64,000 nucleotides of DNA from an uncultured Gemmatimonadales bacterium (GCA_963795085.1 CAWCFX010000003.1:96001-160000); one strand, 5' to 3'; counted from the first letter of the stretch, positions 1-17,259 are shown. Notes: generated by a model not told the origin, from the letters alone. A program made the numbers and translations.

Positions 1-150
1 CTGGACGACGCCTTCCAGGAAATCCGGGGCGTTGGGCAGCGAGGCCGGCCGCTCGTAGCGAAGGATGCGTTCGATCTGAAAGATATCGAGCGCGAACTCC
101 TGGGAACCTACCCGGAAGATGACTACCTGGATTTCGTCTGCTGCCGTCAC
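1..150 (-). CDS. cheW: CheW coupling protein (partial, runs off the window)
   Basis: Manual translation from GTG at 150, which overlaps the upstream [53 protein letters not shown], a typical CheW N-terminus. Confidence 0.85.
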   Translation of the reverse strand, partial: MTAADEIQVVIFRVGSQEFALDIFQIERILRYERPASLPNAPDFLEGVVQ

Positions 151-569
151 GCGGGTGCCTCCGGAATGGTGAGACGATCGCCGACCCTGGCCAGGTCCAG
201 CAGGGGCACCAGGCCGGTTGGAAGCCGGACCACGCCGGATGCCCACGGCAGCTTCTCCCCGGGAGGTGCCTCCATGGCCGTCCCCGCTACGATGGCTTCG
301 GCATCGTCGACCTCGAGGCAGACTTCCCGGCCGCCCAGGGAGAGCACGACCGAGGTTCCCCCGGTATCCCCCGCGCCGGTGCCAATCAAGGTGCCCAGGG
401 CGACCACCGGCAGGATGCGGCCCCGGGCGGCCGTCACTCCGCGGCAGGCAGCGGCGCTCGTCGGTACCGGATGCACCGTCCCCAGCGCCTCCACGGCGAC
501 CACGAACTCGACCGGCAGACCCACCCGCCGGGACCCGAGGCGGACCAGGAGAAACTGCACCCCGCTCAT
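147..569 (-). CDS. cheW: CheW-like protein (divergent)
   Basis: [38 protein letters not shown] and PLLDL match the CheW pattern. Confidence 0.8.
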
Positions 570-1633
570 TGGCGAGCCATCCGGGCCAGGACATCAGTGA
601 CCCGCCGCGCCAGCAGGCCCAGCGGCAGGACGTGGTCCACGCCTCCCGCCTGCACCGCCGCGTTGGGCATCCCGTAGACCGTGGACGTGGAGCGATCCTG
701 GGCCAGTCCGCATCCGCCCGCATCGTGAATGGCTCGAAGCCCCACCGCGCCATCCCGGCCCAGCCCGGTCAGCACCACGCCGACGGTGGCCGGGCCATAG
801 GTATCCGCGACGGAACGAAAGAGCGGATCGGCGGCGGGCCGAACCCCCCAGACCGCAGGAGACTGGTCCAGTACGATGACCGGCCCGCCTTCGCGCATTT
901 CCACTCTCATATGATAATCGCCCGGCGCCACGAAGGCGGTGTCCGCCTGGAGGGGCGCACCGTCCCACGCTTCCACGACGGAGAGCCGGCTCTGTCCATC
1001 CAGCCGTTCGGCCAGTCCGCGGGTAAACGCCGCCGGCATGTGCTGGACGATAAGAATCGCGGCACCCTGCCCCGGCGCCAGCTGGGGCACCACCTCGGCC
1101 AGCGCGCGAGGCCCGCCGGTCGAGGCGGCGATCGCAACGCAGCGGCCGGCGAGCCCCGCGGCGACCAGATCGCGCCGCCCCCGCTGGGGAGGCCGGGCCA
1201 GCACCGGGATCCTGGAGACATCCGCCACCGCCGCCGCGCGGAGGGCCTGCAGCAGCCGGGGACCGAGCCGTTGGAGACCCTCCCGGCTGGGGCGCTGTTC
1301 CTTGTCGACAATCTCCACCGCGCCCAGTTCCAGCGCCCGGATCGCGCCGCTGCTGCCGGCTCCCGCGTGCGCGCTTACCACGACGATGGGGCGCGGAATT
1401 TCCGACATGATGTACCCGATCGCCGCCGGGCCATCCAGTTCCGGCATGTCGAGGTCCATCGTGATCAGGTCGGGAAGGTGCTGGTGCACCTTCTGGAGGC
1501 CATCGTGGCCGTTGCGGGCGGTGGCGGTGACCAGGAACTCACCCGAGGAATTGATGATCTCCGTCAGCACCTGGCGGACCAGGGCGCTGTCGTCGACCAC
1601 CAGGACCCGGAGGACTCTAGAGTCGGTGTTCAC
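566..1633 (-). CDS. cheB: Chemotaxis methylesterase/response regulator CheB
   Basis: REC domain ([15 protein letters not shown]) plus catalytic motifs ASTGGP, VQHMP and TGLGRDG; start re-assigned to GTG at 1633. Confidence 0.95.
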
Positions 1634-2108
1634 TCTGATTGGCCGCTGACCGCACCACGACGGCCCCGTCGGACGGGTAAAACCAGACGGAGCGACCCGA
1701 CTCCCCGCCGACCAGCTCGCCGATGATCGGCACCCCAAGCTGGTTCAGCACGTCCCGGGTGGCCACCACGTTGCGCTCGCCCATCTGGATCGACCCGGGG
1801 GGGGACAGCGCCGCGAACAGGCTGGCCCCGCCGACCAGCCGGGCGCTCACCCGGCGGGGGACCGCACCGAGACCGGTGAGCCGGTCCAGGAGCGCCGGCA
1901 CCGCCCCCTGCGGGGTCTTGGCGGGATTGTCATCCTTCCGCACCAGTGAGCGGGAGGGCAACATGATGTGGGCCATGCCTCCCACCTTCTTGACCGGATC
2001 GTAGAGCACGATCGCGACGCAACTGCCGAGCCCGTAGGTCACCAGCACTTCGCCGCTCACGCCGGTATTCAGGTCGGCGACCCGGACGATGATCTCGCGG
2101 CCCGTCAT
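1617..2108 (-). CDS. cheD: Chemoreceptor glutamine deamidase CheD
   Basis: [23 protein letters not shown] and MGERN motifs. Confidence 0.95.
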
Positions 2109-2926
2109 GCCGGCCGCCGATAGACGCGCTCCCGGGCGTCCACCAGCTCGAGCCGGTCACGCATGGGCCCGAGAATCGTTTCCACCTTGCCCAGCACCAG
2201 GATTCCGCCGGGACGCAGCGATTCGGTAAACAGGGTAAAGAGCCGTTCCTGCATGGCCCGGTCGAAGTAGATCAGCACGTTGCGGCAAACGATGAGGTCG
2301 TAGGGAGCATGGCGGGGAGTATCCCGGGTCAGGTCCAGCCGGTTGACGTGGACCACCCGCCGAATCGGATCGGTAACGAGGCGGCTGCCCGGATCGGCCG
2401 GTTCAGTGTACCGGTCGATGTACTCTTCCGGCGCCTCGCTGAAGGCGCCCAGCGGATAGGCCCCGATGCGGGCCCGGTCGAGGCTGACCCGGTCGATGTC
2501 GGTCGCGTCGATGGCCAGCCGGTGCATCCATTCCGGGTGCCCCGCCTTGAGCGCGACTTCCGCAAACAGCATCGCCAGGGAGTACGGCTCCTCGCCGCTG
2601 GCGCATCCGGCGCTCCAGACCCGGAGCACGCGGCCGGCGTCCCGCCACAGCCCGGCTACGACGTCCTGCTGCAGCCGCTGCCACAGTTCGATGTTGCGGA
2701 AGAACTTGGTGACGTTGATGGTGAGCACATCGGAAAGCTTCTGCAGTTCGTCCGGCGTGCGCTCCAGGATGGCGAGATACTCGTCGTAGGTCGCCACGTT
2801 GTGGGCCCGCATCCGGACCGCGATGCGGCGCTTGAGGCAGCGCGGCTTGTATGCCTCGGTGGAGAGGCCGGCGACTTCGCTGATACGGCGGGTCAACTGG
2901 GCAAAGCTCGCATCGTCCGTGGTCAT
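2105..2926 (-). CDS. cheR: Chemotaxis methyltransferase CheR
   Basis: LTINVTKFFRN, VWSAGCASGEEPYSLAM and CRNVLIYF; start at ATG 2926 overlaps the upstream stop. Confidence 0.95.
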   Translation of the reverse strand: MTTDDASFAQLTRRISEVAGLSTEAYKPRCLKRRIAVRMRAHNVATYDEYLAILERTPDELQKLSDVLTINVTKFFRNIELWQRLQQDVVAGLWRDAGRVLRVWSAGCASGEEPYSLAMLFAEVALKAGHPEWMHRLAIDATDIDRVSLDRARIGAYPLGAFSEAPEEYIDRYTEPADPGSRLVTDPIRRVVHVNRLDLTRDTPRHAPYDLIVCRNVLIYFDRAMQERLFTLFTESLRPGGILVLGKVETILGPMRDRLELVDARERVYRRPA

Positions 2927-4545
2927 GACGCGACGTTCCCCAGGGTTTCCAGATTGGTCCGGGCCAGCTGGTGCCCGGGGTTCAGCACCGTCGCCTGCTG
3001 CCACCAGGCGCGGGCCCGCTCCTGGTCCCGACGGCGAAAGGCGATATTGCCCATCTTGAAATAGAGGTCGTCACCCAGGTCGGGATTGAGTTTGGCGGCC
3101 CGCTCGTAGGCATCGAGAGCCTCGTCGTACCGGCCGGCGCGGTACAGCAGGTCGCCCAGGTTCTTGGATATCTGGGAGTACGACGGCTCCTCCGCCAGCG
3201 CCGATCGGGCCATGACCTCGGCGCCGGCCAGGTCGCCGGTGAGCTCGAGCAGCACCGCCAGGTTATTGCGAATGACGGCGTTCCCGGGGTGGGCCTGGAC
3301 ACCTTCCTGCGCGGTGCGCACCGCGCCGCCGAGGTCGTCCGCGCCGGCCGCCGCCAGCGACGCGGCCCAGAACCAGGTGGCCGGCGGTGGCCGCTCCCCC
3401 CAGACCTCGCGGGCCCGGGCCAGCCGGGCCACCGCCACCCCCGGGTCGCCCCGCTTGAGGGCGGCAATGCCCCAGCTCAGCATGTACCGGGCATCGTCGC
3501 GGGCCCGGCTCACCGCGTCGGCGTAGGCGGCTTCCGCGTCGTCGAGCCGTCCCATCTGCTCCAGCGCGAAGCCCAGATTGTGCAGCACCGAGGGCCGGGC
3601 TCCCCCCAGGTCGGCCGCCTGCCGCAGGCAGGACACCGCCTCGGGCCAGCGGGCTTGCCGGAGAGCGATCAGGCCCAGGTAGAACGCGGCGCTGGGTTCC
3701 CGGGGCCGCAGTTCCGCCACCCGGCGGAACTCCCGCAACGCTTCGTCCAGCATTCCGGTCTTGTAGAAAGCGATCCCCAGGTTCCGGTGCTCGTCCACCC
3801 GGCCTTCGGGCGCCTGGGGTGCCGGGTTCGGCACCGAGGACCCGGTGCGGTGGGCAAACCCGGCCGTGATCAGGCCGTACAGGGCCTTGCCGGCCTCGAA
3901 CTCAATCAGCCCGGAATCCTCGAAGACCTGCTGCACGTCCCGGGATCCATCGAGCAGGGGGAGGATCCGCTCCTGGCTCGGCGACAGCCGCACATCGGAC
4001 TGGGCCAGGTGCTCGCGGTCCAGCGCGAAGATCAGGTCCAGGGCCGGGATTTTTTTCTCGATCAGGCTCCACTCGTCCACCCGGCGGGCGCCTTCCAGGA
4101 GGAGCGACTCCGGGTTGATCTGGACCAGGAAGTCTTCCCGCTCAGGGCGGACCCCCGCCTCGAAGTTGAAAGTCCCCGAGTTCCAGGTGAAAAGGAAGTA
4201 CACCGCTTCCTCGATCTGGAGGCGCATGTATTCCTCCAGCTCTTCACGCGAGATCGCATTGATCTCGACCAGGATCTGACCCAGTTTGGTGTCCCGCTTC
4301 TCGGTCTGCATGTCCACCGCCTGTTGCAGCTGGGCGGCCGAGATGCGGTTGTTCTTCACCAGGATGTCGCCCAGCCGGTCCCGGCGGTTGACGATCGAGG
4401 CGTAGCAGATCTTGCCCAGGTCGAAGTAGATATAGCCGAAGTTGTGGCGGTCGGCGACAGCGAGCAGGCCGGTCTTGCGGCCCAGCGCCAGCAGCTGCAG
4501 CACGTCGGGCAGACTGGCTTCCTTGAGACTCCCCTTGATGGCCAT
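2923..4545 (-). CDS. DUF4388 (PatA_N-like) domain + MshEN-like motifs + TPR protein
   Basis: GSLKEASLPDVLQLL..RKTG, W..GTFNF and LLLEGARRVDEW signature; C-terminal TPRs. Confidence 0.85.
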   Translation of the reverse strand: MAIKGSLKEASLPDVLQLLALGRKTGLLAVADRHNFGYIYFDLGKICYASIVNRRDRLGDILVKNNRISAAQLQQAVDMQTEKRDTKLGQILVEINAISREELEEYMRLQIEEAVYFLFTWNSGTFNFEAGVRPEREDFLVQINPESLLLEGARRVDEWSLIEKKIPALDLIFALDREHLAQSDVRLSPSQERILPLLDGSRDVQQVFEDSGLIEFEAGKALYGLITAGFAHRTGSSVPNPAPQAPEGRVDEHRNLGIAFYKTGMLDEALREFRRVAELRPREPSAAFYLGLIALRQARWPEAVSCLRQAADLGGARPSVLHNLGFALEQMGRLDDAEAAYADAVSRARDDARYMLSWGIAALKRGDPGVAVARLARAREVWGERPPPATWFWAASLAAAGADDLGGAVRTAQEGVQAHPGNAVIRNNLAVLLELTGDLAGAEVMARSALAEEPSYSQISKNLGDLLYRAGRYDEALDAYERAAKLNPDLGDDLYFKMGNIAFRRRDQERARAWWQQATVLNPGHQLARTNLETLGNVAS

Positions 4546-6475
4546 CAGCGCAGGTCCTCCACGATCCGGTCGGCGGAGTCGGGCCAGTCCCAGATCATCT
4601 TCTCGGAACTGCGAACCGTCCCGGAGGGCAAGGCGACCACGCCGCTCACCCGGTTCCCCCCGCTCCGCCTGGGGGGCTTGGGGGCGGACCTTCGAGGAGC
4701 TCGCGGGCGAGCGCGGCGGTGGGCGGCTCCTGGCGGGTTTCGGCGGCGCTCACCACCCGCTGCAGGATCCCCTGCAGCGTCCGCACGGAGTCCACCGACC
4801 GTCCCGCCAGGTATTCTGCCAGCTCCTGATTACCGCCGCCGGTGCCTTGCCGCACCAGACGCTCCAGCACCGCGACCCGCACTTCCCGCTCCGGGGGCGG
4901 CAGGTGCACCACCAACCCCCCCTCAAGGCGGCTGATCAGGCGGGGTTCCACTCCCGTCAGTTCACCCAGCGGCATCGGGCTGGTGAAGACCATCTGCCGG
5001 CCTTCCTTCAACAGGTGGTTGAAGAGCCAGAAGAACTCTTCCTGCGTCCGCTCCTTACTGTGCAGCAACTGGATATCGTCGAGCAGAAACGCGGTCACCC
5101 GGCGATACCGGGATCGCCACCAGGCCACCCGGTCGCGGTCGATGGCCGCGATGAGGTCGTCGACCAGCTCCTGGGTGTTGAGACAGGCCACCAGCGCCCC
5201 ATCGTGCCGGGCCAGCCCGTTGCCGATGGCGTGGAGGAGGTGGGTCTTGCCGGTCCCGCTGGGGCCGACCACCACCAGCGGGTTGTATTTGAGCGCCGGA
5301 TGCTCCACCGCCATGAGCGCCGCGCGTACCGCGATCCGGTTTCCGGGTCCCTCGGCGAAATCGGAGAGTTGCCAGAAAGGCGAGGGCCCCGGCGGCGGGG
5401 TCGCCCCTTCCCGGGCCCGGGCCAGCAGTGCGGCGGCATCATCGACCCGGTCGGGATCGCGGAACACCGCCTCGCCGCCGAGGCTGGCGTCGATGTCCAC
5501 GGCATCGGCCTCGATCGCGCGAAGCCGCTCGACATCCTCCGCAAACTGGCGCAGGGTGGCGTCGGGGTCGGCGGGGGAGTCCTGTTCCAGAAGCGCGCTC
5601 AGCCGGCTGACCCGGTACCCTTCGCCTTCCCACCGCATCACCGCCTCGGCCACCCGGGTGCGCCAGGCCTCCACCTGCTGGGCGACGGTGTGGGAAATCT
5701 CGGACAGGAAGCTGCCGAACTCGTCGGCCTCGGGGGGCGGCGGGGTGACGCCCAGGGGCACCCCGCCGAGCACCACCCGGGCCTGGGCCGGGTCGAGCGG
5801 CTGATCACTCACCGCCTGGAACGCGATCAACCGGTTGAGCGCGCCGATCAGCTCGCGCACGTTGGTGATCGCCAGCGATGCGACCGCTTCCAGCACACCG
5901 GCGGCGAATTCCGCCCGCCGCTCCTCGGCGTGGCGCCGCACGATGGCCACCCGGGTCTCGTAGTCGGGGGCGGCGATGTCGATCACCAGGCCGCCGGCGA
6001 ACCGCTGGATCAACCGCTCGTCCAGTGACTCGATGTCCGCCGGGCTCCGATCGCTGGTCAGGACGATCTGCCGGCTCGCGGTCTGCATCGCGTTGATGAC
6101 CCGGAGCAATTCGGCCTGCATCTCGCGCCGCCGGTCAAGGAACTGGACATCGTCGACCAGCAGCAGGTCCACCTCGGTGAATCGGCGGCGGTAGGCCTCG
6201 CCCTGGCCGGCGGCGACGGCGGCGTGGAAGGACTCCATGAAATCGTCGAGGGTGAGGTACTCGACGGCGAGGGCGGGATTGATCAGCCGCGCGGCATGAG
6301 CTACGGCCATGAGCAGGTGGGTCTTGCCCAGTCCGGGGCCGCTGTAGATGAACAGCGGGTTGTAGGCCACGCCGGGGCTCTCGGCCACCGACTTGGCGGC
6401 CGAGACCGCCAGCCGGTTGGCGGAGCCCACCACGAACGTATCGAAGCGGAACCGGGGATTCAGGTCCGCGGTCAC
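4545..6475 (-). CDS. Tandem DnaA/Hda-like AAA+ ATPase with no domain I or IV; apparent frameshift near 4680 (as sequenced the ORF stops at 4646)
   Basis: Two modules, each with YNPL..G..G.GKTHLL and DD(V/I)Q plus Arg-finger and sensor II regions; the alternative frame ends in a TGA overlapping the next ATG. Confidence 0.85.
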
Positions 6476-7074
6476 TTCAAGGCGCCCCCGGCGGCCAGTT
6501 TCTTGAGCACGGCCTCGCTGATGCCTTTCAAGGTTTCGAACACCCCGCCCCCGTGGAGCGCATCAGCGCTGAAACTCCGCACCATCCGGAAGTTGAGCGC
6601 ATCGTCCAGCTCGGCCTGGGTGAGAATGAGATCCCGCGGCAGGTCCTGCTTGTTGTACTGGAGGACGACCGGGAATGTCCGGACGTCGATACCCTGCTGC
6701 AGGAGATTACCGTGGAGGTTCTGCAGGCTCTCCAGGTTCTCTTCGAAGCGGCGGGCCTGGCTGTCGGCGACGAACACCACGCCGTCGGCGCCCTGCAGGA
6801 CCAGCTGCCGGGTCGCATTGTAGTAGACCTGCCCCGGCACCGTGTAGATCTGGAACCGGGTCTTGAACCCCGAGATCACGCCCAGGTCGATGGGCAGGAA
6901 ATCGAAGAACAGGGTGCGGTCCGTCTGGGTCGCGAGCGATACCATGCGGCCGCGCCGCGATTCCGGCACCCGGCCATACACGTACTGCAGGTTGGTCGTC
7001 TTGCCCGAGCGTCCCGGCCCGTAGTAGACGATCTTGCAGGTGATCTCGCGAGTGGTGAAGTTGACGAGTGACAT
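6472..7074 (-). CDS. mglA: MglA-family small Ras-like GTPase
   Basis: [38 protein letters not shown] and YNKQD. Confidence 0.95.
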
Positions 7075-7107
7075 TCAGTCCGGTCTCTGGGTCACGGCGG
7101 TCTCCGG

Positions 7108-7569
7108 CTATCGGCCGAACAGGGTGCGCAGACTGGTGTTGAGTTCCCGCTCGAAATCGGCGGCCAGCACCTCGCGGGGCTTGTCTTCTCCCGGGGTGGC
7201 GGCCTGCAGCGCCTGCACCAGCCGGCTGAAGAACAGCTGGACCAGTCCCAGGGTGGTTTCCGGCCCGAAGACCACCAGCCCGATCCAGGCCCCGCGCGGT
7301 GTGTCGAAGCGGGCCAGGAAGTGCCCCTGCCGGGTACCCTGGTGAACCATGATCGTGAAGGCCGGCCAGGTCATGGTGCGGGCCAGTTCCTGCGCGGAGG
7401 CGACGATGCCGGCCCCCAGCGCCGCCGCGGACATCACGTCCAGGGCCCGCGTGAACCCGTGCTGGGCAATGACCTGCCCCGACCCGGTCATGATCAGGAC
7501 CAGCCGGGCGGAGGACTCAGCCAGGAAATCATTGAGGGGCTCCACCACCCAGGGCTCGACTGAGCGCAT
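7108..7569 (-). CDS. mglB: MglB-like Roadblock/LC7 protein (putative GAP)
   Basis: Adjacent to mglA; GQVIAQHG, VVFGPETTLGLVQL and an amphipathic C-terminal helix FERELNTSLRTLF. Confidence 0.8.
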   Translation of the reverse strand: MRSVEPWVVEPLNDFLAESSARLVLIMTGSGQVIAQHGFTRALDVMSAAALGAGIVASAQELARTMTWPAFTIMVHQGTRQGHFLARFDTPRGAWIGLVVFGPETTLGLVQLFFSRLVQALQAATPGEDKPREVLAADFERELNTSLRTLFGR

Positions 7570-7916
7570 CAGGAGCCGCCCTCCGCGACCCGCGCCATTT
7601 CCAGCCGCGCCCGCCCCACGTTGACGCCCTTGTCCGCAATCACGATGAGCAGAAGCCCGGCGCCAGCCGGGGCCAGCAACAGCGCGCCACCGGTCGCCTG
7701 CAGGTGCAGAAACCCGGCGCTCCCGCCGCGGGCGGTCATCGCCGCCGTCTCCAGTTTCCGGGCCAGGCTGCTCGCCAACGCGGCCAGGGCGGCGCTCTCG
7801 ACGTCTTCCCGAATCGATTCCGCGACCACGATGCCGTCATCCCGGCTGGCCAGCATGGCCCCGCGGACGCCGGCGATGCCGGTGAGACGGTCCAGGGCCG
7901 CCGGTGTCAGGGTCAT
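7569..7916 (-). CDS. Roadblock/LC7 protein (MglC-like paralog)
   Basis: From ATG 7916: LDRLTGIAGVRGAMLASRDDGIVVAE..ALAALASSL..VNVGRARLEM. Confidence 0.8.
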   Translation of the reverse strand: MTLTPAALDRLTGIAGVRGAMLASRDDGIVVAESIREDVESAALAALASSLARKLETAAMTARGGSAGFLHLQATGGALLLAPAGAGLLLIVIADKGVNVGRARLEMARVAEGGS

Positions 7917-8791
7917 GCGCCTGCCTCCAACCAGCGGCGGGCGGCTTCCAGCGCCCGCCCGGTCCCGATGGCTACCCGTCCCATTGGCATCGAGGGATCC
8001 CGCATTACCATCAGGAGCGTTTCCGCCGTCGGCGGCACCAGGAAGTAGTTGGCGGCGCCGGTTTCCACCGCGATACTCCGCCATTCCCCGAGGTCCAGTA
8101 TCCGGGCCGCTCGAGCCGCCTCCCGGGAAACGCCCGCGAGTTCCGCCGCCACCTGGTCGGCGACGCCTTCCCCCAGTTCCCCCAGGGATCCGAGCAGGCG
8201 CATCCCGGCGGAATCCACCAGCAACAGTCCGTCGTCCTCCAGCACCGCATCGCCGGCCGCCGCGGGCCGGGGAGAGGAGGGCGGGATGGACGGTTGCTCG
8301 ACCTCGAAGCGAATGGCGGCCGGCGCGGCGGGAGTCCCGATCCGCGGGGGTTCCTCCGGGACCGGCGTGGCCGGCTCCGCTTCCCGCGCGGCGAGTTGGG
8401 CCCTGACCCGCTCGAGGGCGCTCTCCACCTGGGCATCGCCCGGCAAGTCCGCCGCCGCCGCATTCAGATGGCGAAGCGCCGACGGAAGGTCGCCCGCTTT
8501 CCAGAACAGGAAGGCGAGGCCCTTGTGAGCGCCGCCATGGGCTGGGTCCAGCCGGAGCGTCATGTCCCACTCATCGAACGCCCCTTCGAGGTCCTGGTGA
8601 TCCACCAGCACCCGGGCATACAGGTCGTGGGCCTCCGGGAGATTGGGATAGCGCACCAGCCCCTGGAGGGCCACCTTGGCGGCGGGCTCGAGCCGGCCGG
8701 CCTGGCGCAGGGCTTCCCCCAGCCGGAGAAACACCAGGCTGGTGGAATCGGCGGCCAGTTCGGCGGTCATCCGGCGGATGTCGTCAGTCAC
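7913..8791 (-). CDS. TPR + Roadblock/LC7 fusion protein
   Basis: N-terminal TPRs (FLRLGEALRQAG), a Pro-rich linker, then a roadblock domain (LLLVDSAGMRLLG..LDLGEW..PMGRV); GTG start at 8791. Confidence 0.75.
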   Translation of the reverse strand: MTDDIRRMTAELAADSTSLVFLRLGEALRQAGRLEPAAKVALQGLVRYPNLPEAHDLYARVLVDHQDLEGAFDEWDMTLRLDPAHGGAHKGLAFLFWKAGDLPSALRHLNAAAADLPGDAQVESALERVRAQLAAREAEPATPVPEEPPRIGTPAAPAAIRFEVEQPSIPPSSPRPAAAGDAVLEDDGLLLVDSAGMRLLGSLGELGEGVADQVAAELAGVSREAARAARILDLGEWRSIAVETGAANYFLVPPTAETLLMVMRDPSMPMGRVAIGTGRALEAARRWLEAGA

Positions 8792-9929
8792 CCGGCCCTC
8801 GCAGTGCCTGGTCCAGAGTCGCGACCGCTTCTCGCACCGCCCGGACCGTGGCGGAATGCGCCGCCTCTTCGGGCGGCATGCCGGCGGTGGCGTTCCAGCG
8901 GTCGCAGGCGTCCGTGGCCTCGCGGAAGCGACCCTGGGCGGCCAGGCAGAGGCCCCACAACCGCCAGGCGGGGATAAAATCCGGGTCCAGCTGGAGCGCC
9001 CGGTGAATCGCGGTCCCGGCCTCGGCGTAGCGGCTGCTTCGCAGCAGCGTCCGCCCCAGCACGACATGGGCCAGCGGCTGGTCGGGATAGTGGGTCGCGG
9101 CTTCCTCCGCGATCTGGCGCGCGACATCGGTTTCCCCGTTGAACAGCTCGTTCTCCGCCCGGCTGATCATGATGGCCAGTTCCCTCCCGCCAGGCTGCTC
9201 CCGGGGGTGCTGGGCCGGGTCCTCGAGCTGGATGATGCCGGCGCTGGCCAGCCCGAAGAGAGTCTTGGCGACCTCGAACTCGGAGCGCACCAGCGCCAGC
9301 GAAATACCCCGTACGTCCTGGGCTCCGTCGATCGCCGCCAGCACTTCCCACTCGAACGGGATCAGGTCCAGCGGCGCCTCGGACGAGGGGAGGGCCAGCC
9401 GTGGCAGGATGCCGAGGTGAGGAATCTTGGTTTCGATGCGCGACCACTCGTCGATCCGGCGTGCCGCTTCCATGACCAGCGCCTCGGTGGTGATCCGGAT
9501 ATCCGCCTCGGCGGGAGACTCGGCCACTTCGCCTTCCTCGAATGAGAAGTAGCCCTCCGCCCAGCTCAGCAATTCGAAAATGACTTCCTCGACCTGGGAA
9601 CGGACCTGCCGGTCCAGTTCACGCCGGGTGATGGAGCCCATGGCGATCAGGATCTCACCCAGCCGGCGGGGGTCGCCATTCTGCTGCATGGCCCGGGAAC
9701 GGGTCAGGTCCTCTTCCGAGATCTTGCCGGCCCGAAGCAGGAGGCCACCCAGCGGGTGCGGGTTGCTGCGGATCTCGGCGCCAATCACGGCGCCCTTCTC
9801 GAAAAACACCATCCCCGCGTTCTGGCGGATCTCGGAGCGCACCCTGAGCACCCCGGTCTTCCGGCTCAGGTCCAGCAGCTGGAAGACATCGTGGATGCCC
9901 AGTTCGCGGAGAGGGCCTTCGATCGCCAC
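8784..9929 (-). CDS. DUF4388 domain + MshEN-like motifs + TPR protein
   Basis: AIEGPLRELGIHDVFQLLDLSRKTG, WAEGYFSF and MEAARRIDEW; C-terminal TPRs; GTG start at 9929. Confidence 0.85.
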   Translation of the reverse strand: MAIEGPLRELGIHDVFQLLDLSRKTGVLRVRSEIRQNAGMVFFEKGAVIGAEIRSNPHPLGGLLLRAGKISEEDLTRSRAMQQNGDPRRLGEILIAMGSITRRELDRQVRSQVEEVIFELLSWAEGYFSFEEGEVAESPAEADIRITTEALVMEAARRIDEWSRIETKIPHLGILPRLALPSSEAPLDLIPFEWEVLAAIDGAQDVRGISLALVRSEFEVAKTLFGLASAGIIQLEDPAQHPREQPGGRELAIMISRAENELFNGETDVARQIAEEAATHYPDQPLAHVVLGRTLLRSSRYAEAGTAIHRALQLDPDFIPAWRLWGLCLAAQGRFREATDACDRWNATAGMPPEEAAHSATVRAVREAVATLDQALRGPGD

Positions 9930-9930
9930 G

Positions 9931-12627
9931 TCAGGATGCCCTGGACACGAGAATGCGTTCCAGGTCACGGGCCGACCGTGCCTCGTTCCTTGCCAGCTGC
10001 GCGAAGGAGGAGGCCGGGTCGGCCTGGACCACTTTTTCCCACAGCTGCAGCGCCTGGTGATAGCGGCGCATCCGGGCCAGCGCGACCCCCCCGTAATACA
10101 ATGCCCCGGTGCAGTCCGGCGCGAACTTGAGGATCCGGCTGAATGCTTCCAGCGCCCGTTCCGGGCGGCCATCGTCGATCAGGGTGCGGCCCAGCAGCTG
10201 CAGCGCTTCGAGGTCGTAGGGATCGTGAATCAGGAGCGAGACCAGGACATCCGTGGCGGCCGGTCGCGCCTCGGTCCGCCGCAGCAGGTCGGCCAGCGCC
10301 AGCCCGGCTTCCACGTAGGTGGGCAGCAGATCGAGCGCCCGTTCATAGGCCGCGCGGGCGCCGGTCCAGTTCTCCCGTTTCTCTTCCAGCGCTCCCAGTT
10401 CACACCAGACCTGGGCCAGCGACCCGTCCAACTGGAGCGCGCCCTGGTAGGCCTCGATGGCGGCGGCGGTTTCGCCCAGCCGCGCGGCGATGTTCCCCTG
10501 CAGCTGCAGCAGGTCGGGCCGGCCGGGAGCCCGGGCCTGGGCCTCCCGGGCCAGGTCCATGGCACCGACCGGGTTGCCCGCGGCCAGCCGGGTGCGCGCG
10601 GCGGCGACGAGCACCTCCACGTTGTCCCGGCAGCGCGGGATCATCGATTCCACGATGGATGCCGCTTCGCTTGCGCGGCCCAGGGCGAGCAGCGCCCGGA
10701 CTTCGCCCAGGGCCGCCCCGTCGTTGCTCCCCAGCTCCTTGCGAGCCTCGCGGTACCGTTCCAGCGCTTCGCCATGCAGGCCTCGCCGGGCGAAGATATG
10801 TCCGGCCAGCACCGCCGCCTCGGCGGGCGAGGCTCCCCGCCCGAGGGCCCGGTCCAGTTCGGCGGAGGCCCGCTCCAGCAACCCCTTGGCCACGCACTCG
10901 CGCGCCAGGGCCAGCGGATCTTCGCCGGTCGGCCCCGCCGTGGCGGGGGCCGGGACGGCGGGCGCGAGTTCCCGAAAGACCTGATCCAGGAGGCGCTGAT
11001 CGAACGTGAAATCCTCGCCCAGTTCCTCGGTGACGACATCAGCTGAAATCTCCGGAACGATGGCGATGGTCGGGTCTTCGTACTGGAGGTCGATCGTCAG
11101 CGAGTACTTCTGGGGAACATAGAACGGCTCCAGTTCCAGCGCCCGCTTGGTTTCCCGGAGAGCTCCATCGAACTCGCCCAGCTGGCTCAGGGTGAAACTC
11201 AGGTTGTAATGGGCCGACGCGCTCTCGGGATCGGATTCGACGGCCCGGGCGAAGGCATTGCGCGCATCGGGAAAGCGCTTGAGTTCAGTGAGAACCAGCC
11301 CGATCCCATTCCACGCGATGGCGTTGCCCTCCGACTGGGCCAGGACCTGCCGGTACGCCTCCAGGGAGAGTTGCAGCCGGCGCCGCTGCAGGAGCAGCAG
11401 CCCCAGGTTCAGCTGGGCCGTGATGAGGTCGCGCCTGCAGCGGAGGGCCTGGTGAAAGGATTCCTGGGCATCGTCCGAGCCGGTGTCACCGCTCTGCAGG
11501 ACCCCCAGGTTGTTCCAGCTGAGGGCATAGTTGGGATCAAGGGCGACCGCTTTGCGATAGGCGGCCGTGGCTTCCTCCCGGCGGCCGGCCTGGTGCAGGC
11601 AGACGCCGCGCTCGTTTTCCAGCTTGGGGGAGTCGGCGAACTCGGCCACCAGTCGATCATACAACTCCAGCGCCGCGCCCAGGTCCCGGCGCAGGAGGTG
11701 CACCTCGGCCATGGCCTGGAGCGTCAGGCGCCGGTCCTCCCCGCTCTCCAGGGCCAGCCGGTACTCGCGCAGCGCTTCGACATAATAGCCCTTCTGCCGG
11801 AACGCGAGGCCGAGATTGTAATGCGCCAGCGTGGATCCGCCGGCCAGGGATGGCCGCCGCAGTTGGTCGCTGCCTTCGGCGATGACCCGGGCGCCTCCGG
11901 TCCTGCGCCGGAGCGACAGGTTAGTATGGGCCCGGGCGAAGGTGGGATTGAGCGCGATGGCCCGCTTGGTCGCCGCCCGGGCCGCCTCGTGCTGGCCCAA
12001 ATCGCCGTACAGGAACGCCAGCAGATAGTGGGCGTCGGCGTTGTCCGGGTTGAGTCCCACCGCCTCCTGCAGGATGCTCCGGGCCTGGTCGTTGAGGCCG
12101 CGGTTGTACAGGGCTTCCCCGTAGTAGAACAGGGCCAGCGAGCTTTCCGGGTCCAGGTCCCGGGCCTCGCCGAACCGGTCGCAGGCCTCTTCCAGGTGGC
12201 CACTGGCCTTGAGCGCGAGGCCGAGCTGAATCAGGGCAGCCACGTCGCCGGGGGACCGCGCGAGCAGGGCTTCGAACTCCCGGACGGCGTCTTCGTGGTG
12301 GCCCAGCGACGCGTAGGTGCGGGCCAACTCCCACCGGGCATCCCGGTCGTCGGGAGCCCGGCGCACCCGCTCGTGCAGTTCCGCCACCCGGCGATCGTAG
12401 TACCCGGTGTTGCGGTAGGCGACCTCCAGGTTGGCCTGGGCCACCTGCATCTTGGGATCGAGTTCCAGCGCCCGGGAAAACGCGGCGATGGCCTCGGCGA
12501 CCAGGCCTTTCTGGTGGTAGAGGACGCCCAGGTTGTTATGGGCGCCGGCGTCGGAAGGATCGATCCGGCGGGCAAAAGAACGCAGGACCGCGAGGTCGCG
12601 TTCCGAGAGGACCGAGCCGCCGGACAT
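9931..12627 (-). CDS. Large TPR-repeat protein (898 aa)
   Basis: Many canonical TPR units (AHNNLG, AHYNLG, WNNLG, ALELDP); no signal peptide. Confidence 0.9.
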   Translation of the reverse strand: MSGGSVLSERDLAVLRSFARRIDPSDAGAHNNLGVLYHQKGLVAEAIAAFSRALELDPKMQVAQANLEVAYRNTGYYDRRVAELHERVRRAPDDRDARWELARTYASLGHHEDAVREFEALLARSPGDVAALIQLGLALKASGHLEEACDRFGEARDLDPESSLALFYYGEALYNRGLNDQARSILQEAVGLNPDNADAHYLLAFLYGDLGQHEAARAATKRAIALNPTFARAHTNLSLRRRTGGARVIAEGSDQLRRPSLAGGSTLAHYNLGLAFRQKGYYVEALREYRLALESGEDRRLTLQAMAEVHLLRRDLGAALELYDRLVAEFADSPKLENERGVCLHQAGRREEATAAYRKAVALDPNYALSWNNLGVLQSGDTGSDDAQESFHQALRCRRDLITAQLNLGLLLLQRRRLQLSLEAYRQVLAQSEGNAIAWNGIGLVLTELKRFPDARNAFARAVESDPESASAHYNLSFTLSQLGEFDGALRETKRALELEPFYVPQKYSLTIDLQYEDPTIAIVPEISADVVTEELGEDFTFDQRLLDQVFRELAPAVPAPATAGPTGEDPLALARECVAKGLLERASAELDRALGRGASPAEAAVLAGHIFARRGLHGEALERYREARKELGSNDGAALGEVRALLALGRASEAASIVESMIPRCRDNVEVLVAAARTRLAAGNPVGAMDLAREAQARAPGRPDLLQLQGNIAARLGETAAAIEAYQGALQLDGSLAQVWCELGALEEKRENWTGARAAYERALDLLPTYVEAGLALADLLRRTEARPAATDVLVSLLIHDPYDLEALQLLGRTLIDDGRPERALEAFSRILKFAPDCTGALYYGGVALARMRRYHQALQLWEKVVQADPASSFAQLARNEARSARDLERILVSRAS

Positions 12628-12634
12628 TCGGCCG

Positions 12635-13255
12635 TCAGGTCAGCCGGATGGCGTCGAACACCGCGCGGAGCGACGCGAGGTCGGGCATCAGCAGGAAGTG
12701 GCCGCGGAGACCCTTGGCTTCATCGGTGAACTGGAATTCGGTTTCCAGGCAGAAGACAAAGTCCCGTTCGTACCCGAAGTTGAGGTACGTCGTGGTGAGG
12801 ATCGCCCCGGAGAGGTCGATCACCAGCGAGGGCACCGAGGGAAGCAGCATCATCCCCATGAAATCGCTCAGCGCGGTGAGGTAGGCGCTGCTCAGAATGT
12901 TGCCGGCCTCCTTGAGCCCGGATTCTTCCATGATGCCGAATTCGACGGTGGTGCCGATGGGGCGCCGCAGCAGGATGTCGCACAGCATCCGGGCCGAGTC
13001 CCGCGGAAAAATCACCATGGTCCGGCCGGTCAGATCGCCCATCATGTGCATGAGCACCGCGGCGATCACGTCGTCCGGCTTGCCCAGGACGTCGGCGACC
13101 TGTTCCAGCCGGGTGATGTTCACCTCGGGCACCGTGATCATGATCTTGCGGCTGGTCATCTGCGACAACGCCGTCGCGGCGTGACCGGCCCCGATATTGG
13201 CCACCTCGCGGAGGGCGTCCAGTTGCAGCGCCTGCAAGTTCCGTATGTCGTCCAT
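12635..13255 (-). CDS. cheC: CheY-P phosphatase CheC
   Basis: Two ExxN motifs (DALREVANIG, KEAGNIL); ATG at 13255 has a GGAG RBS. Confidence 0.92.
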   Translation of the reverse strand: MDDIRNLQALQLDALREVANIGAGHAATALSQMTSRKIMITVPEVNITRLEQVADVLGKPDDVIAAVLMHMMGDLTGRTMVIFPRDSARMLCDILLRRPIGTTVEFGIMEESGLKEAGNILSSAYLTALSDFMGMMLLPSVPSLVIDLSGAILTTTYLNFGYERDFVFCLETEFQFTDEAKGLRGHFLLMPDLASLRAVFDAIRLT

Positions 13256-13293
13256 TGAATACTCCATTCCGGAAGCCCGCCAACCCACCCCTG

Positions 13294-13319
13294 CCCGGTA
13301 CTCAGTCCTGAGTACCGGG
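13294..13319. repeat. 12-bp perfect inverted repeat in the cheA-cheC spacer
   Basis: CCCGGTACTCAG-tc-CTGAGTACCGGG, with no U-tract. Confidence 0.7.
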
Positions 13320-13322
13320 TGC

Positions 13323-15218
13323 CTACATCAGCGCTGCCGCATCCAGGATGAGCGCCGGTTCACCGTCACCCAGGATGGTGGCCCCGGAGAACACCGGCAG
13401 CATGCCCCGGGGCGCCTCGAACGGCTCCACCACGATCTCCTGCTGGCCCAGCAGCGCGTCCACCACCAGGGCGCTCTTGCGCTCACCCGATTCGAGGATG
13501 ATGGCCGGGGGCCGCGCCGGGGCCGGGTCGCCGTTCACCCGGAGCAGGTCCCGGAGCCGGGTGGTGGGAATTACCCGATCGCGCAGGACCAGCGCCTCGC
13601 GGCCGCCGAGCGAGGTGCTCCGCCCGGGATCCCATTCGATGGTCTCGGCCACGTGGGCGAGGGGCACCGCATAGCGCTCCCGACCGACCCGGGTGAGCAG
13701 GACCCGGAGCACCGCCAGGGTGACCGGGAGCCGCAGCGTGATCGAGGTTCCCCGCCCCGGCTCCGATTCGATCGCGGCCGCCCCGCCGAGGGCCCGCACC
13801 CGGGTCAGTACAACATCAATACCCACCCCGCGTCCCGACACGTCGGTCACGGCGGCGGCGGTGCTGAACCCGGGCCGCCCCATCACTTTGAGGAGGATGT
13901 CGTCAGTCAGCTCGCCAGTCACCGATTCCATCAGGCCATCCTGCACCGCCCGTTCGGCAATCTTCCTGCGGTCGATCCCGCGGCCATCGTCGGTGACCCG
14001 GACCGCGACGCCACTGCGGTCGCGCGCCGCCGAAAGTACGATCCGTCCCATCTCGTGCTTGCCGGCCCGCCGCCGGTCGGCCGGCGACTCGATCCCGTGG
14101 TCCACCGCGTTCCGGAGCAGGTGCAGCAGCGGATCGCCGATCTCGTCCAGGATGGCCCGGTCCAGTTCGATGTCGCCGCCTTCGATCAGCAGGTCCACCC
14201 GCTTGCCCAGCTGGCGGGCGAGGTCGCGCACCAGGCGCGGATAGCGGTCGAAGACCTGCCAGACCGGGGAGAGACGGACCTGGATGACCTCGGTCTGCAT
14301 CTCACTCACCAGCCGGCTGATCCGCGCGCTCACCGCCTCGAGATCGGGGTTTGGGGCGTGCGCCACCACCTCGGCCAGCCGGCCCTTGGCCACGACCAGT
14401 TCGCCCATGTGGTTCATCAGGGCATCGAGCCGGCGCAGGTCCACCCGGATGTGCCGGGGGCCGCCCGGCGCGGCGGGATCTTCGACCGGCGCCGGGACCG
14501 GCGCCTCGCCGATGGAAACGGTATCGACGTCGCCGGCGCCCCGGATGGCTGCCTCCACCACCTGGTCGGTCACATCGGTATGGAGCCGGAACGAAAAGCG
14601 CCCGTCGAAATCCTGCTTTTCCAGGTCGGACAGCGCGGGCCGCACACCGGTCACGTGGCCCAGCGCCTCGGCCCGCTTGAGGGCCAGGGCGGCGCGGCCG
14701 CCCCGCATGACCGCCTCCGAGCGAATCGCCACCCGGACCAGCCGGCCGGTGGCGACCGGCTCGGCCGTCCCCGCGGCCGTGGCCTCGATGGTCTGCCGGG
14801 CGGAGCGCACCGCGCGCATTTCGCCGGTGCGGGACTGGGCCTGGCTGGCGGCCGCGTCGAGGTCGGCGATCAGGGCGGCAAAATCGAGCCGATCATCGCG
14901 CCCCCCGGTGGCCTCCTCCAACGACTGCTCCAGGGTGTCCACCGCCCGGAAGAGCAGGTCGATCAGGTCCGCCTCGGCCGATGCTACCCGTTCCCGGAGC
15001 AGCGAGAGCAGGCTTTCCGCGCGGTGAGCCAGCGCCGCAAGGTTGGCATAGCCCATGGTGGCCGCCATCCCCTTGAGCGTGTGCATCGCGCGGAAGATCC
15101 CCACCACCGGCTCCGCGGCGTGGGGCGAGCGTTCAAGTTCCAGCAGCAGGCGGTTGCACGCCTGGAGATGCTCACGGCCTTCCGCGAGAAAGAGGTTGGC
15201 GTACCGGGAAAGGTCCAT
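13323..15218 (-). CDS. cheA: Chemotaxis histidine kinase CheA
   Basis: HPt (FRAMHTLKG), HATPase (HLLRNAVDHG, DDGRG, GRGVG) and a C-terminal CheW domain. Confidence 0.97.
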   Translation of the reverse strand: MDLSRYANLFLAEGREHLQACNRLLLELERSPHAAEPVVGIFRAMHTLKGMAATMGYANLAALAHRAESLLSLLRERVASAEADLIDLLFRAVDTLEQSLEEATGGRDDRLDFAALIADLDAAASQAQSRTGEMRAVRSARQTIEATAAGTAEPVATGRLVRVAIRSEAVMRGGRAALALKRAEALGHVTGVRPALSDLEKQDFDGRFSFRLHTDVTDQVVEAAIRGAGDVDTVSIGEAPVPAPVEDPAAPGGPRHIRVDLRRLDALMNHMGELVVAKGRLAEVVAHAPNPDLEAVSARISRLVSEMQTEVIQVRLSPVWQVFDRYPRLVRDLARQLGKRVDLLIEGGDIELDRAILDEIGDPLLHLLRNAVDHGIESPADRRRAGKHEMGRIVLSAARDRSGVAVRVTDDGRGIDRRKIAERAVQDGLMESVTGELTDDILLKVMGRPGFSTAAAVTDVSGRGVGIDVVLTRVRALGGAAAIESEPGRGTSITLRLPVTLAVLRVLLTRVGRERYAVPLAHVAETIEWDPGRSTSLGGREALVLRDRVIPTTRLRDLLRVNGDPAPARPPAIILESGERKSALVVDALLGQQEIVVEPFEAPRGMLPVFSGATILGDGEPALILDAAALM

Positions 15219-15222
15219 CCGG

Positions 15223-15585
15223 TCAGCCGAGGACGCGCTGGACGGCCTCGAGGACGCGGGAGGGCTGGAACGGCTTCACAACAAAGTCCTTGGCGCCGGC
15301 CTGGATGGCCTCGACGACCAGGGCCTGCTGCCCCATCGCGCTGCACATGAGGACCTTGGCATCGGGATCGGTCCGGCAGATTTCCCGGACGGCGTCGATC
15401 CCGCCCATATCGGGCATGACGATATCCATGGTGACCAGGTCCGGTTTGAGCTGCCGGTATTTCTCCACCGCCTGCCGGCCGGTTTCGGCTTCACCGACCA
15501 CCTCGAACCCTGCCTGGGCGAGAATGTCGCTGATCATCGTGCGCATGAAGATCGCGTCGTCGCATACCAGAACCGTATGACCCAC
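15223..15585 (-). CDS. cheY: Response regulator CheY (Bacillus/Thermotoga-like)
   Basis: VLVCDDAIFMR, VTMDIVMP, CSAMGQ and FVVKPF. Confidence 0.93.
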   Translation of the reverse strand: MGHTVLVCDDAIFMRTMISDILAQAGFEVVGEAETGRQAVEKYRQLKPDLVTMDIVMPDMGGIDAVREICRTDPDAKVLMCSAMGQQALVVEAIQAGAKDFVVKPFQPSRVLEAVQRVLG

Positions 15586-15644
15586 GAAAGCTCCTTTCCT
15601 TGACCTGTCCAGCGTCCCCCTGCCCGGAAGAGAAGGGGGAACGA

Positions 15645-16097
15645 CTACCTGGCCTTCACCGGCGCAAGCACGGGACCCAGCACGACGTCCGGATCGAGTA
15701 CCACGAACACCAGCGATTCCCAGCGTCCGACTGCGCGTACGATTTGCGGATCCACGCCCGGCAGGGTGCCGCGGTCCTCCAGGGCACTGGCGGGAACGTG
15801 GACGAGATCGTGAACCTGGTCAACGAGAAGGCCGAGGGGCCGGCCGTGAACCTGCAGGAGAAGGATCGAGGGCTCGGCACCGGGCTCCCCCGCCGCCCGC
15901 CCCAGCATCCGCCGCCCATCCACCACCGTGACCAGCCGACCCCGCACATTCACGAGCCCTTCGACGCCGTCAACCGCCCCGGGAATACGGGCGGCACCCA
16001 GCGCGGGGACGATCTCCCGGACAGCCGCCACCGGGAGGGCACAGATCAGGTCGCCCACCCGGAAGATGACCAGGCTCGCCGCGGTAGTTTCAGCCAT
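15645..16097 (-). CDS. cheW: CheW coupling protein
   Basis: LVIFRVG..ALPVAAVREIV..GLVNVRGRLVTVVD..GLLVDQV; ATG at 16097. Confidence 0.9.
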   Translation of the reverse strand: MAETTAASLVIFRVGDLICALPVAAVREIVPALGAARIPGAVDGVEGLVNVRGRLVTVVDGRRMLGRAAGEPGAEPSILLLQVHGRPLGLLVDQVHDLVHVPASALEDRGTLPGVDPQIVRAVGRWESLVFVVLDPDVVLGPVLAPVKAR

Positions 16098-17091: not shown

Positions 17092-17112
17092 GGGGACGCG
17101 GCGGCAGACAGA

Positions 17113-17259
17113 GTGCAGAGTGCCGGGTGCAGAGTGCAGAGTGCCGGGTGCAGAGTGCAGAGTGCCGGGTGCAGAGTGCAGAGTGCAGGGTGCAGAGTGC
17201 AGAGTGCAGAGTGCAGAGTGCAGAGTGCAGAGTACAGGGTGGAGGGTGCAGCGTACCGG
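17113..17259. repeat. Heptamer tandem array, about 21 units of GTGCAGA and variants
   Basis: Read directly: GTGCAGA/GTGCCGG/GTGCAGG units with a 21-bp higher-order period at the left end. Confidence 0.95.

Follow-up and report, generated by a model that had tools for sequence, protein, structure and literature searches.

A chemosensory gene string enclosing an MglA cassette with a tandem DnaA-type ATPase in Gemmatimonadota

Gene content of the locus

We analyzed a stretch of 64,000 nucleotides from the genome of an uncultured Gemmatimonadales bacterium (the window, G000:C3:96001-160000; G+C ~69%), at one end of which chemosensory (che) genes enclose a cassette of eight genes. The cassette encodes a paralogue of MglA, a small GTPase, with its partner MglB, two further Roadblock proteins, a large tetratricopeptide repeat (TPR) scaffold, two PATAN-TPR proteins and a tandem ATPase related to domain III of the replication initiator DnaA. 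The genome comprises 6 contigs with a total length of 3.89 Mb and a completeness of 93%. Third-position G+C indicates that the minus strand holds all real genes of the region. An earlier note on this DNA had described 17 co-directional genes at positions 1..16097, with the cassette set between cheW-cheY-cheA-cheC and cheR-cheD-cheB-cheW-cheW. Our Pfam scan bore out the genes and their order, and placed them on the minus strand; the limits did not stand, as the string runs past both ends.

Followed down the minus strand, the string starts with the first cheW (15645..16097; Pfam CheW 5.9e-25, start codon ATG checked), cheY for a single-domain response regulator (15223..15585; Response_reg 1.7e-31) that is 84-93% identical in ten relatives, cheA with the domain order P1-P2-P3-P4-P5 (13323..15218; Pfam Hpt, P2, H-kinase_dim, HATPase_c and CheW) and cheC of the CheY-P (phosphorylated CheY) phosphatase family (12635..13288; Pfam CheC 3.4e-23, NCBIfam CheC_Thtogales 2.7e-48), for which an alternative ATG is possible at 13267. 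The cassette opens with the TPR scaffold protein of 898 aa (9931..12627; many Pfam TPR families), PATAN(DUF4388)-TPR protein 1 (8784..9929; PF14332 1.6e-31) and a TPR protein with a C-terminal Roadblock-like domain (7913..8770; Pfam TPR, and Robl_LC7 at 1.2e-3, under the Pfam cut-off), a gene whose position is conserved in relatives. The next gene overlaps it by ATGA and encodes a small Roadblock/LC7 protein (7569..7916; Robl_LC7 2.2e-8). The mglB paralogue (7108..7569), the mglA paralogue (6472..7074), the gene for the tandem DnaA-domain-III AAA+ protein (4545..6475, assembled open reading frame (ORF) 4646-6475) and that for PATAN(DUF4388)-TPR protein 2 (2923..4545; PF14332 5.8e-37) complete the cassette. 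The che genes then resume with cheR (2105..2926; Pfam CheR 2.1e-46 and CheR_N), cheD (1617..2108; CheD 3.5e-22), cheB with a receiver and a methylesterase domain (566..1633; CheB_methylest 1.4e-60 and Response_reg, GTG start at 1633 inferred), the second cheW (147..569; CheW 4.6e-17) and the third cheW (1..150), which is cut by the window edge and complete at G000:C3:95647-96150 (CheW 4.1e-31 on the full gene).

The 16 internal junctions, with starts checked, comprise eight overlaps of 1-17 nt, four gaps of 1-13 nt, and gaps of 33, 34, 59 and 100 nt, the largest being an artefact caused by the frameshift that disrupts the tandem ATPase gene. That most of the genes overlap or nearly abut, as had been claimed, is therefore correct for 12 of the 16 junctions, and che genes flank the cassette on both sides through overlapping junctions. 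No terminator-like site lies between genes, the total of 11 such sites against 7.1 ± 2.5 expected being at chance level. Likewise, a promoter scan gave nothing beyond chance and no intergenic site, with a sigma-70 consensus that may not fit the phylum. A search for RNA sequencing runs covering window 4000-13999 returned none. The frameshift falls in C5/C6 runs at 4668-4687 (within the region 4545-4687 of the window), where the ORF runs on to a stop at 4646 and the tail continues in another frame to 4545, ending in a TGATG overlap with the PATAN-TPR2 gene. In genomes of the same genus the ATPase frames are open and encode 656-658 aa; the frameshift in the window may stem from the assembly or be genuine.

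The string contains three CheW genes and no gene for a methyl-accepting chemotaxis protein (MCP); the three MCPs of this genome are all encoded outside it. The single CheA of the genome (PF02895, one match) is the copy in the string. We regard the Che set as F1-like on the indirect evidence of CheC and CheD and of NCBIfam best matches that lie below the equivalog cut-offs. These best matches are CheA_Halo and CheY_Halo, both archaeal, and CheC_Thtogales.

The cassette proteins and the predicted MglA-ATPase contact

The cassette MglA aligns with M. xanthus MglA (5ymx) at 3.6e-73 over residues 1-198 and with T. thermophilus 3t12 at 6.5e-67. The parts of PMC4316618 that define Group 1 of the MglA family name a TVPGQ motif in place of DxxGQ and an arginine finger by the G2 threonine. 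The cassette MglA has the Group 1 hallmarks GPGxxGKT, TDRT and TVPGQ: YTVPGQ, as opposed to DxxGQ, stands unchanged in all 23 cassette MglA sequences, and so do R53 and T54 in the motif TDRTLFF, in which the arginine finger stands beside the G2 threonine. The mglB gene lies 33 nt upstream of mglA, and its product matches solved MglB chains at 1.6e-7 to 1e-3. Its profile matches are weak (Robl_LC7 4e-3, under the cut-off; NCBIfam MglB equivalog 34.8 against 200 bits). A C-terminal helix, LAADFERELNxSLxxLFGR, occurs with substitutions in all 23 cassette MglB sequences. The small Roadblock/LC7 protein appears MglC-like in its size and position.

A second mglB-mglA pair lies on the minus strand at C3:~297.2-298.7 kb (L042:8161-9663), between recR and pgsA. 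Here a canonical MglB precedes an MglA that is 52% identical to the cassette copy. Since a canonical pair is thus encoded elsewhere in the genome, the cassette copy is a specialised paralogue. The second MglA (224 aa) carries a 32-residue insertion before the last helix, alpha5, and in several motifs looks more like the M. xanthus sequence than the cassette copy does. The idea that the two paralogues differ in the alpha5 pocket was set aside, as alpha5 itself is similar despite the insertion.

The tandem ATPase matches Bac_DnaA in two stretches (4.2e-94). Its N-terminal half matches domain III of B. subtilis DnaA at 8.8e-56, and all matches to solved DnaA are confined to domain III; Pfam assigns ATPase families only, with no match to the DNA-binding domain IV or to domain I. 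The protein falls short of Hda (TIGR03420 159.8 bits against a cut-off of 194.8 bits) and is a tandem with a middle domain. In all 23 sequences compared, the Walker A lysine, the Walker B DD and the box VII arginines are present in each of the AAA+ halves. The N-terminal half has an invariant sensor II arginine, which is kept in at least 90% of the C-terminal halves; in the latter sensor I is altered. A structure model (mean predicted local distance difference test (pLDDT) score 88.1, predicted template modelling score 0.52) consists of two AAA+ modules; between them lie a disordered stretch and ~110 residues that form a helical domain. This middle domain, modelled alone with a pLDDT of 88.0, gave no Foldseek match in the PDB at E ≤ 0.001, and in a wide VIA-align comparison its best hit (Z 6.5, EzrA helical repeats) was under the level that is meaningful for helical bundles. 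The orthologues (L043-L062, L027, L029) end in a near-invariant SREKxVWxWPDxxDRxIEE, encoded just ahead of the PATAN-TPR2 start codon. This tail could be a docking peptide, for example for a TPR domain.

In most of 22 loci the mglA stop codon overlaps the start of the ATPase gene. The earlier note had proposed pairwise complex prediction among the proteins of the string, and this was carried out for the MglA-AAA+ pair, using the intact orthologues of G020, alignments of 23 rows each, and GTP and Mg as ligands. The complex scored 0.67 (runs 0.67, 0.69 and 0.64), compared to 0.00 for the best of three controls. Of 157 solved complexes, 116 attain a mark of 0.67, as do 2 of 215 mismatched pairs, counts that are only a rough calibration here because our own alignments and riding ligands were used. 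The runs have at least 47% of contacts in common, with a partner pLDDT of at least 81. On the ATPase the interface consists of residues 271-290 and 319-324 at the start of the middle domain, including an invariant E, F, F and W (E252, F253, F256 and W271 in the numbering of the window copy), and on MglA of residues 2-11, 35-40, 64-72 and 179-194. The prediction speaks for a physical association of MglA with the DnaA-derived ATPase.

The predicted contact has a precedent in M. xanthus, where MglB binds MglA with its C-terminal helix and its N-terminal strand at beta0, the beta2-beta3 loop and helix alpha5, and where the MglB C-terminal helix, in the pocket between alpha5 and the beta2-beta3 loop, drives nucleotide exchange allosterically (structural sections of PMC11016934). 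As in the complex of MglA with the MglB helix (6IZW), the predicted ATPase contact falls on beta0, the beta2-beta3 loop and alpha5, and the ATPase helix DEFxxFLSxVxxTV resembles the MglB C-terminal helix in its amphipathic pattern of an acidic residue, Phe, three further residues and Leu. The two differ in that the helix here would come from an AAA+ protein and not from a Roadblock protein, in a contact that is predicted only. A RomX-like binding mode was also considered. Helix-1 of RomX faces the nucleotide pocket of MglA, according to passages of bioRxiv 10.1101/2024.02.20.581209, and this mode was set aside, as the predicted ATPase contact lies on the opposite face of MglA.

Both PATAN proteins carry a tandem MshEN-type motif in the helical insert of the PATAN domain. 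PATAN-TPR2 scores 44.2 bits with NF053729 (residues 57-108), above the cut-off of 38 bits, and PATAN-TPR1 scores 35.7 bits, just under it. Relatives keep the MshEN-like motif; G031 and L100, which have no ATPase, are exceptions, and L110 is one in part. Neither protein is of PatA type: no match to Response_reg was found in either of them, and TPR repeats are present instead. Judged from these motifs, the PATAN-TPR proteins are likely scaffolds that sense cyclic di-GMP (c-di-GMP); the genome has 13 GGDEF matches. In L038/L039 (G031) and in L100, which lack the tandem ATPase, the MshEN-like insert of PATAN-TPR2 is missing too and only a short stretch aligns. This suggests that the ATPase and the insert were lost together.

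Distribution and natural variants

The string is embedded in conserved surroundings. The rluD stop overlaps the ATG of the first cheW by 8 nt, and further upstream lie, in the same direction, lspA, a DksA/TraR-like gene and ileS. Downstream, the third cheW overlaps by 4 nt the gene for a TPR protein of 291 aa (TPR291), followed by an MA-type peptidase gene and the gene for a TPR protein of 643 aa (TPR643). After a gap of 266 nt comes the division and cell wall (dcw) cluster, with rsmH, a short frame at the place of ftsL, ftsI, murE, murF and mraY. All ten relatives examined have the string directly upstream of dcw, and so do the che-less loci of G017, G069, G092 and G115, as well as G076 and G031. 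This extension to dcw had been missed in the earlier reading, as had the second canonical mglB-mglA pair, the c-di-GMP motifs and the frameshift. The gap between lspA and rluD (window 17109-17251) is filled by a 7-bp tandem array, CAGAGTG, with 20.4 copies and 86% matches; it lies ~1 kb upstream of the first cheW, at a place that a promoter of rluD and the che string could occupy. In a Halobacteriovorax sp. (L122), mglA is found directly upstream of rsmH-ftsI-murE, a second and unrelated case of mglA before dcw.

Among 41 genomes of the order, 38 carry the tandem DnaA-like gene and each of these also has a separate DnaA (~42% identity); in G000 the true DnaA lies at G000:C4:~209 kb. The tandem gene was not found in G031 and G035, and G008 has a fragment only. 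All ten relatives, drawn from three families, show a collinear succession of ileS, che genes, cassette and murE, apart from local losses: cheR, cheB and the final two cheW genes are missing in G021, cheR in G029, and the final two cheW genes in G025, G032 and G034. The full arrangement also occurs in three further orders (G062, G128 and G076), and in G128 and G076 the ATPase match spans one module only.

We then tallied the components in a phylum sample of 151 genomes, each at least 85% complete, which served for all of the ATPase, CheA, FlhA, MglA and PilT searches (it includes G081 and G119, flagged as unpublished, on which alone no claim depends). The tandem ATPase was found in 98 of the 151, the CheA dimerisation domain in 104, FlhA in 40 and an MglA-like gene in 117, most genomes having two MglA genes. 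A PilT-family ATPase was found in 146, including every cassette-carrying family. PilT-family genes usually number 3-6 per genome in cassette-carrying families, against 1-2 in others. ATPase and CheA are both present in 89 genomes. In 80 of these CheA lies on the same contig within ~10 kb, and in the other nine it lies on a different contig, mostly at contig ends. The survey of gene neighbourhoods that the earlier note had proposed thus shows the linkage of che genes and cassette holding across the phylum sample; the possibility that they are unlinked in relatives, on which the note would have given up its reading, is not realized, with the order collinear in all ten relatives and present in three further orders.

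Nine ATPase carriers have no CheA (G017, G132, G168, G072, G115, G069, G092, G088 and G117). In two of the four loci inspected, those of G017 and G115, all che genes are gone, and the eight cassette genes, with TPR291, the peptidase and TPR643, stand intact between rluD and rsmH. G069 has kept cheY, with cheA and cheC degraded, and G092 has kept cheW and cheY together with fragments of cheC, cheR, cheB and cheW. Since the cassette persists in these nine carriers, it works without Che, whose input is accessory and dispensable; the core is the cassette, from which the Che input can drop away. Variants of other kinds occur as well. G031 has che genes and cassette without the ATPase, and in G136 the ATPase, PATAN-TPR2 and the peptidase are the sole parts present.

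An MglA-alignment search of a species collection yielded 598 confirmed stretches, the best 80 of which were inspected. In 48 of these 80 loci (MglA identity at least 61%) cassette genes adjoin mglA, and che genes do so wherever the contig reaches; all 48 are from Gemmatimonadota lineages, unclassified or probably mis-binned. The loci nearest to the window copy are from Gemmatimonadales, with an MglA identity of 92%, and the protein-atlas neighbours of the tandem ATPase are Gemmatimonadota clusters. The other 32 loci, from Myxococcota, Desulfuromusa, Geobacteraceae, Halobacteriovorax, Thermoanaerobaculia, Nitrospirota, Eisenbacteria and the canonical Gemmatimonadota paralogue, have no CheA, CheW, CheC, CheR, CheD, CheB or tandem-ATPase match within 10 kb; they include weak CheY-like matches in L120 and L132 and one weak PATAN match in L114. 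A full cassette with an MglA identity of 81% occurs in a contig titled Acidimicrobiia (L077), probably a mis-binned Gemmatimonadales contig, and L114 (Bifidobacteriales) may be mis-binned similarly. A trimmed form in an uncultured bacterium (L109, with just 2.3 kb of upstream sequence) consists of MglB, MglA (63%), a distant ATPase (30%), PATAN-TPR2, CheR, CheD, CheB and a TPR gene. In a Gemmatimonas-like variant (L110) che genes, PATAN, MglA (~60% identity), ATPase and PATAN are present, with no match to MglB or the two other Roadblock genes. A similarly divergent MglA adjoins the ATPase in G090, G114, G125 and G155. Table S2 of PMC4316618 gives for G. aurantiaca GAU_1409 the neighbourhood PATAN>MglA>-PATAN> and for GAU_1115 MglB>MglA>. 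The reduced form of the L110 type agrees with the GAU_1409 entry, and to judge from this likeness cultured Gemmatimonas may carry a reduced cassette.

Proposed function of the operon and comparison with known systems

On balance we favor the reading that the locus is a lineage-specific Gemmatimonadota chemosensory-polarity operon, in which an F1-like Che pathway feeds the MglA module and the output is non-flagellar, probably type IV pili. MCPs encoded elsewhere would feed the Che set, and CheA would phosphorylate CheY. CheY-P might then act on the Roadblock/PATAN-TPR scaffold and shift the GTP/GDP balance or the location of the cassette MglA, by analogy with the Frz regulators, with c-di-GMP coming in by way of the MshEN-type motifs in the PATAN domains. 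The tandem ATPase would insert the invariant amphipathic helix of its middle domain in MglA's helix-binding pocket, the site of allosteric exchange, in an ATP-dependent manner, and could in this way be an ATP-gated activator or competitor of MglA nucleotide exchange. The output would be a polar, non-flagellar process, with type IV pilus activity, through contacts of PATAN with PilB and PilC, the most likely. In Myxococcus, MglA stimulates pili together with a TPR effector. This, the finding reported in sections of bioRxiv 10.1101/2021.06.11.447907 that PATAN of Synechocystis is an output domain that binds PilB1 and PilC, and the presence of PilT in the cassette families make type IV pili the best candidate; G000 itself has several PilB/PilT-type ATPases. 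The wiring of Che pathway, GTPase and ATPase suggested in the earlier note is thus partly supported, by the linkage and by the MglA-ATPase complex prediction, and the wiring itself we infer.

Several observations weigh against this reading. The Roadblock matches of MglB and of the TPR-Roadblock protein fall under the Pfam cut-off. The complex prediction was made on the G020 orthologues, the window copy of the ATPase being frameshifted, and its score may owe something to memory of 6IZW, because the MglB helix fills the same pocket there. Since PilT is near-universal in the phylum, its co-occurrence with the cassette does not tell the possible outputs apart. To these must be added the nine ATPase carriers without CheA, and the flagellar FlhA of G000: since this genome has no other CheA, its CheY may also serve a flagellar switch.

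The last point leads to the alternative, which we consider unlikely, that the che genes are those of ordinary flagellar F1-type chemotaxis and that the cassette is an unrelated insertion, sharing their position without a signalling link. G000, with its FlhA and the operon CheA as its only one, would fit this explanation, as would the archaeal and Thermotogales chemotaxis equivalogs that are the best matches of CheA, CheY and CheC, and the survival of the cassette after loss of the che genes. Furthermore, the flanks ileS-dksA-lspA-rluD and dcw are equally syntenic, so that conservation of the order by itself says little about a functional link. However, FlhA was not found in 66 of the 89 carriers of ATPase and CheA, all of which keep che genes in the operon and 52 of which have no other CheA; in most carriers, therefore, the operon Che cannot steer a flagellum. 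Among flagellated carriers an additional CheA 20-60 kb from flhA is frequent, and che genes lie on either side of the cassette, with junctions that overlap, which also speaks against an unrelated insertion. The earlier suggestion of an output other than a flagellar motor accordingly fits the clade, while in G000 control of a flagellum is possible.

A similarly low probability attaches to the explanation that the cassette is a spatial regulator of division or of polar morphogenesis (site choice, or the polar spherical appendages), with the ATPase as its tie to the cell cycle and with Che and c-di-GMP as modulators. The string lies directly upstream of dcw in all loci listed above, and the ATPase derives from a replication initiator. 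Parts of PMC11271474 report that Gemmatimonadota lack Min, MipZ, PomZ, MapZ and SsgAB, divide at unusual fractions of cell length and form unexplained polar appendages; genetic tools are there said to be missing. The reported lack of the known division-site systems would leave a role for the cassette, and MinC_C was not found in G000 at its completeness of 93%. The adjacency to dcw may, however, be inherited synteny only, with 266 nt separating TPR643 from rsmH, and the known functions of MglA and PATAN are in motility and polarity. Budding as a link to polarity was dropped, as time-lapse data described in PMC11271474 show binary fission in the phylum.

Least probable of all is a role of the cassette in placing the chemosensory array, or another polar organelle, at the cell pole, by analogy with ParC/ParP of Vibrio and PpfA of Rhodobacter, which are likewise encoded in che operons, together with a ParA-type ATPase; the cassette would then serve Che and not be its output. 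Its place inside the che operon, the marking of poles by MglA family proteins and the three CheW genes without an MCP would suit this, but Pfam gives no match to a ParA/CbiA-type family among the operon proteins and the cassette is intact in G017 and G115, which lack che genes (with seven further genomes lacking CheA), so that array positioning cannot be its sole role.

Within the chemosensory-polarity reading, we regard as possible, though not probable, a more far-reaching role for the tandem ATPase. As an ATP-gated regulator of a small GTPase with a mimic of the MglB helix, it might merge energy or cell-cycle state, CheY-P and c-di-GMP into one polarity decision, and the module as a whole, at the head of dcw, may also set polar or division-site identity where Min-type systems are lacking. 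A polarity module in a phylum without known division-site systems is a candidate for explaining its cell biology. Chemosensory control of MglA is known only from Myxococcus, with scattered partners that were found by genetics; here the parts stand in one operon, and they would provide the parts list for a second, independent example across a major and little-studied soil phylum. The PATAN-TPR proteins gain a testable role as c-di-GMP-sensing adaptors, and the ATPase is a candidate non-replicative use of the DnaA ATPase fold, with a Ras-like GTPase as predicted partner at its allosteric exchange pocket. The natural variants without che genes or without the DnaA-like gene offer ready comparisons.

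The earlier note knew of no description of this arrangement. For the whole this stands: in the full-text literature, with subscription-only papers outside the scope, we found no description of a che operon enclosing mglBA, PATAN genes and a DnaA-like ATPase gene. Part of it has been recorded before, as the PATAN/MglA neighbourhood of GAU_1409 is given in Table S2 of PMC4316618, whose relevant sections (Wuichet and Sogaard-Andersen) also state that PATAN genes occur close to some of the mglA genes of Group 1 and Group 5. The theme, chemosensory control of an MglA switch, is known; the tandem DnaA-type ATPase is a component without a described counterpart. Like DnaA domain III and Hda, both of its halves match Bac_DnaA and keep the Walker A/B, box VII and sensor II residues. 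It differs from them in having two ATPase modules per chain with the helical domain of ~110 residues between them, and neither domain I nor domain IV. The PATAN inserts share with the MshEN domains of MshE/PilB-type ATPases a tandem 24-residue motif of the type RLGxxL(V/I)xxGxI...Q, which here, as far as the sequences tell, sits as a helical insert inside the PATAN domains of scaffold proteins. The cyanobacterial Tax/Pix systems with PatA-type (PATAN-REC) regulators likewise combine Che signalling with PATAN domains. They lack MglA, MglB and the ATPase, and in the operon PATAN is fused to TPR and the receiver is a separate CheY.

The closest comparison is with the Frz-MglA/MglB/MglC/RomR-RomX system of Myxococcus, which likewise joins a Che pathway to a Group 1 MglA, the Roadblock GTPase-activating protein MglB and Roadblock/TPR partners. 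The Frz response regulators act on the state or location of MglA, and the hallmarks of Frz are the CheA-CheY fusion FrzE, the dual-receiver protein FrzZ and the cytoplasmic receptor FrzCD encoded in the cluster. In the operon, by contrast, CheA has no receiver, there is one stand-alone CheY, no MCP is encoded, and CheC and CheD are present. Pfam detected no second receiver domain among the operon genes, RomR, RomX and FrzZ not having been searched for. The operon further differs from the Myxococcus system in its two PATAN-TPR proteins, its tandem DnaA-type ATPase and the presence of a second MglAB pair beside a canonical one. The sections of PMC4316618 on gene neighbourhoods place mglBA of Myxococcus away from the genes of its partners, whereas here all the parts are encoded in one string.

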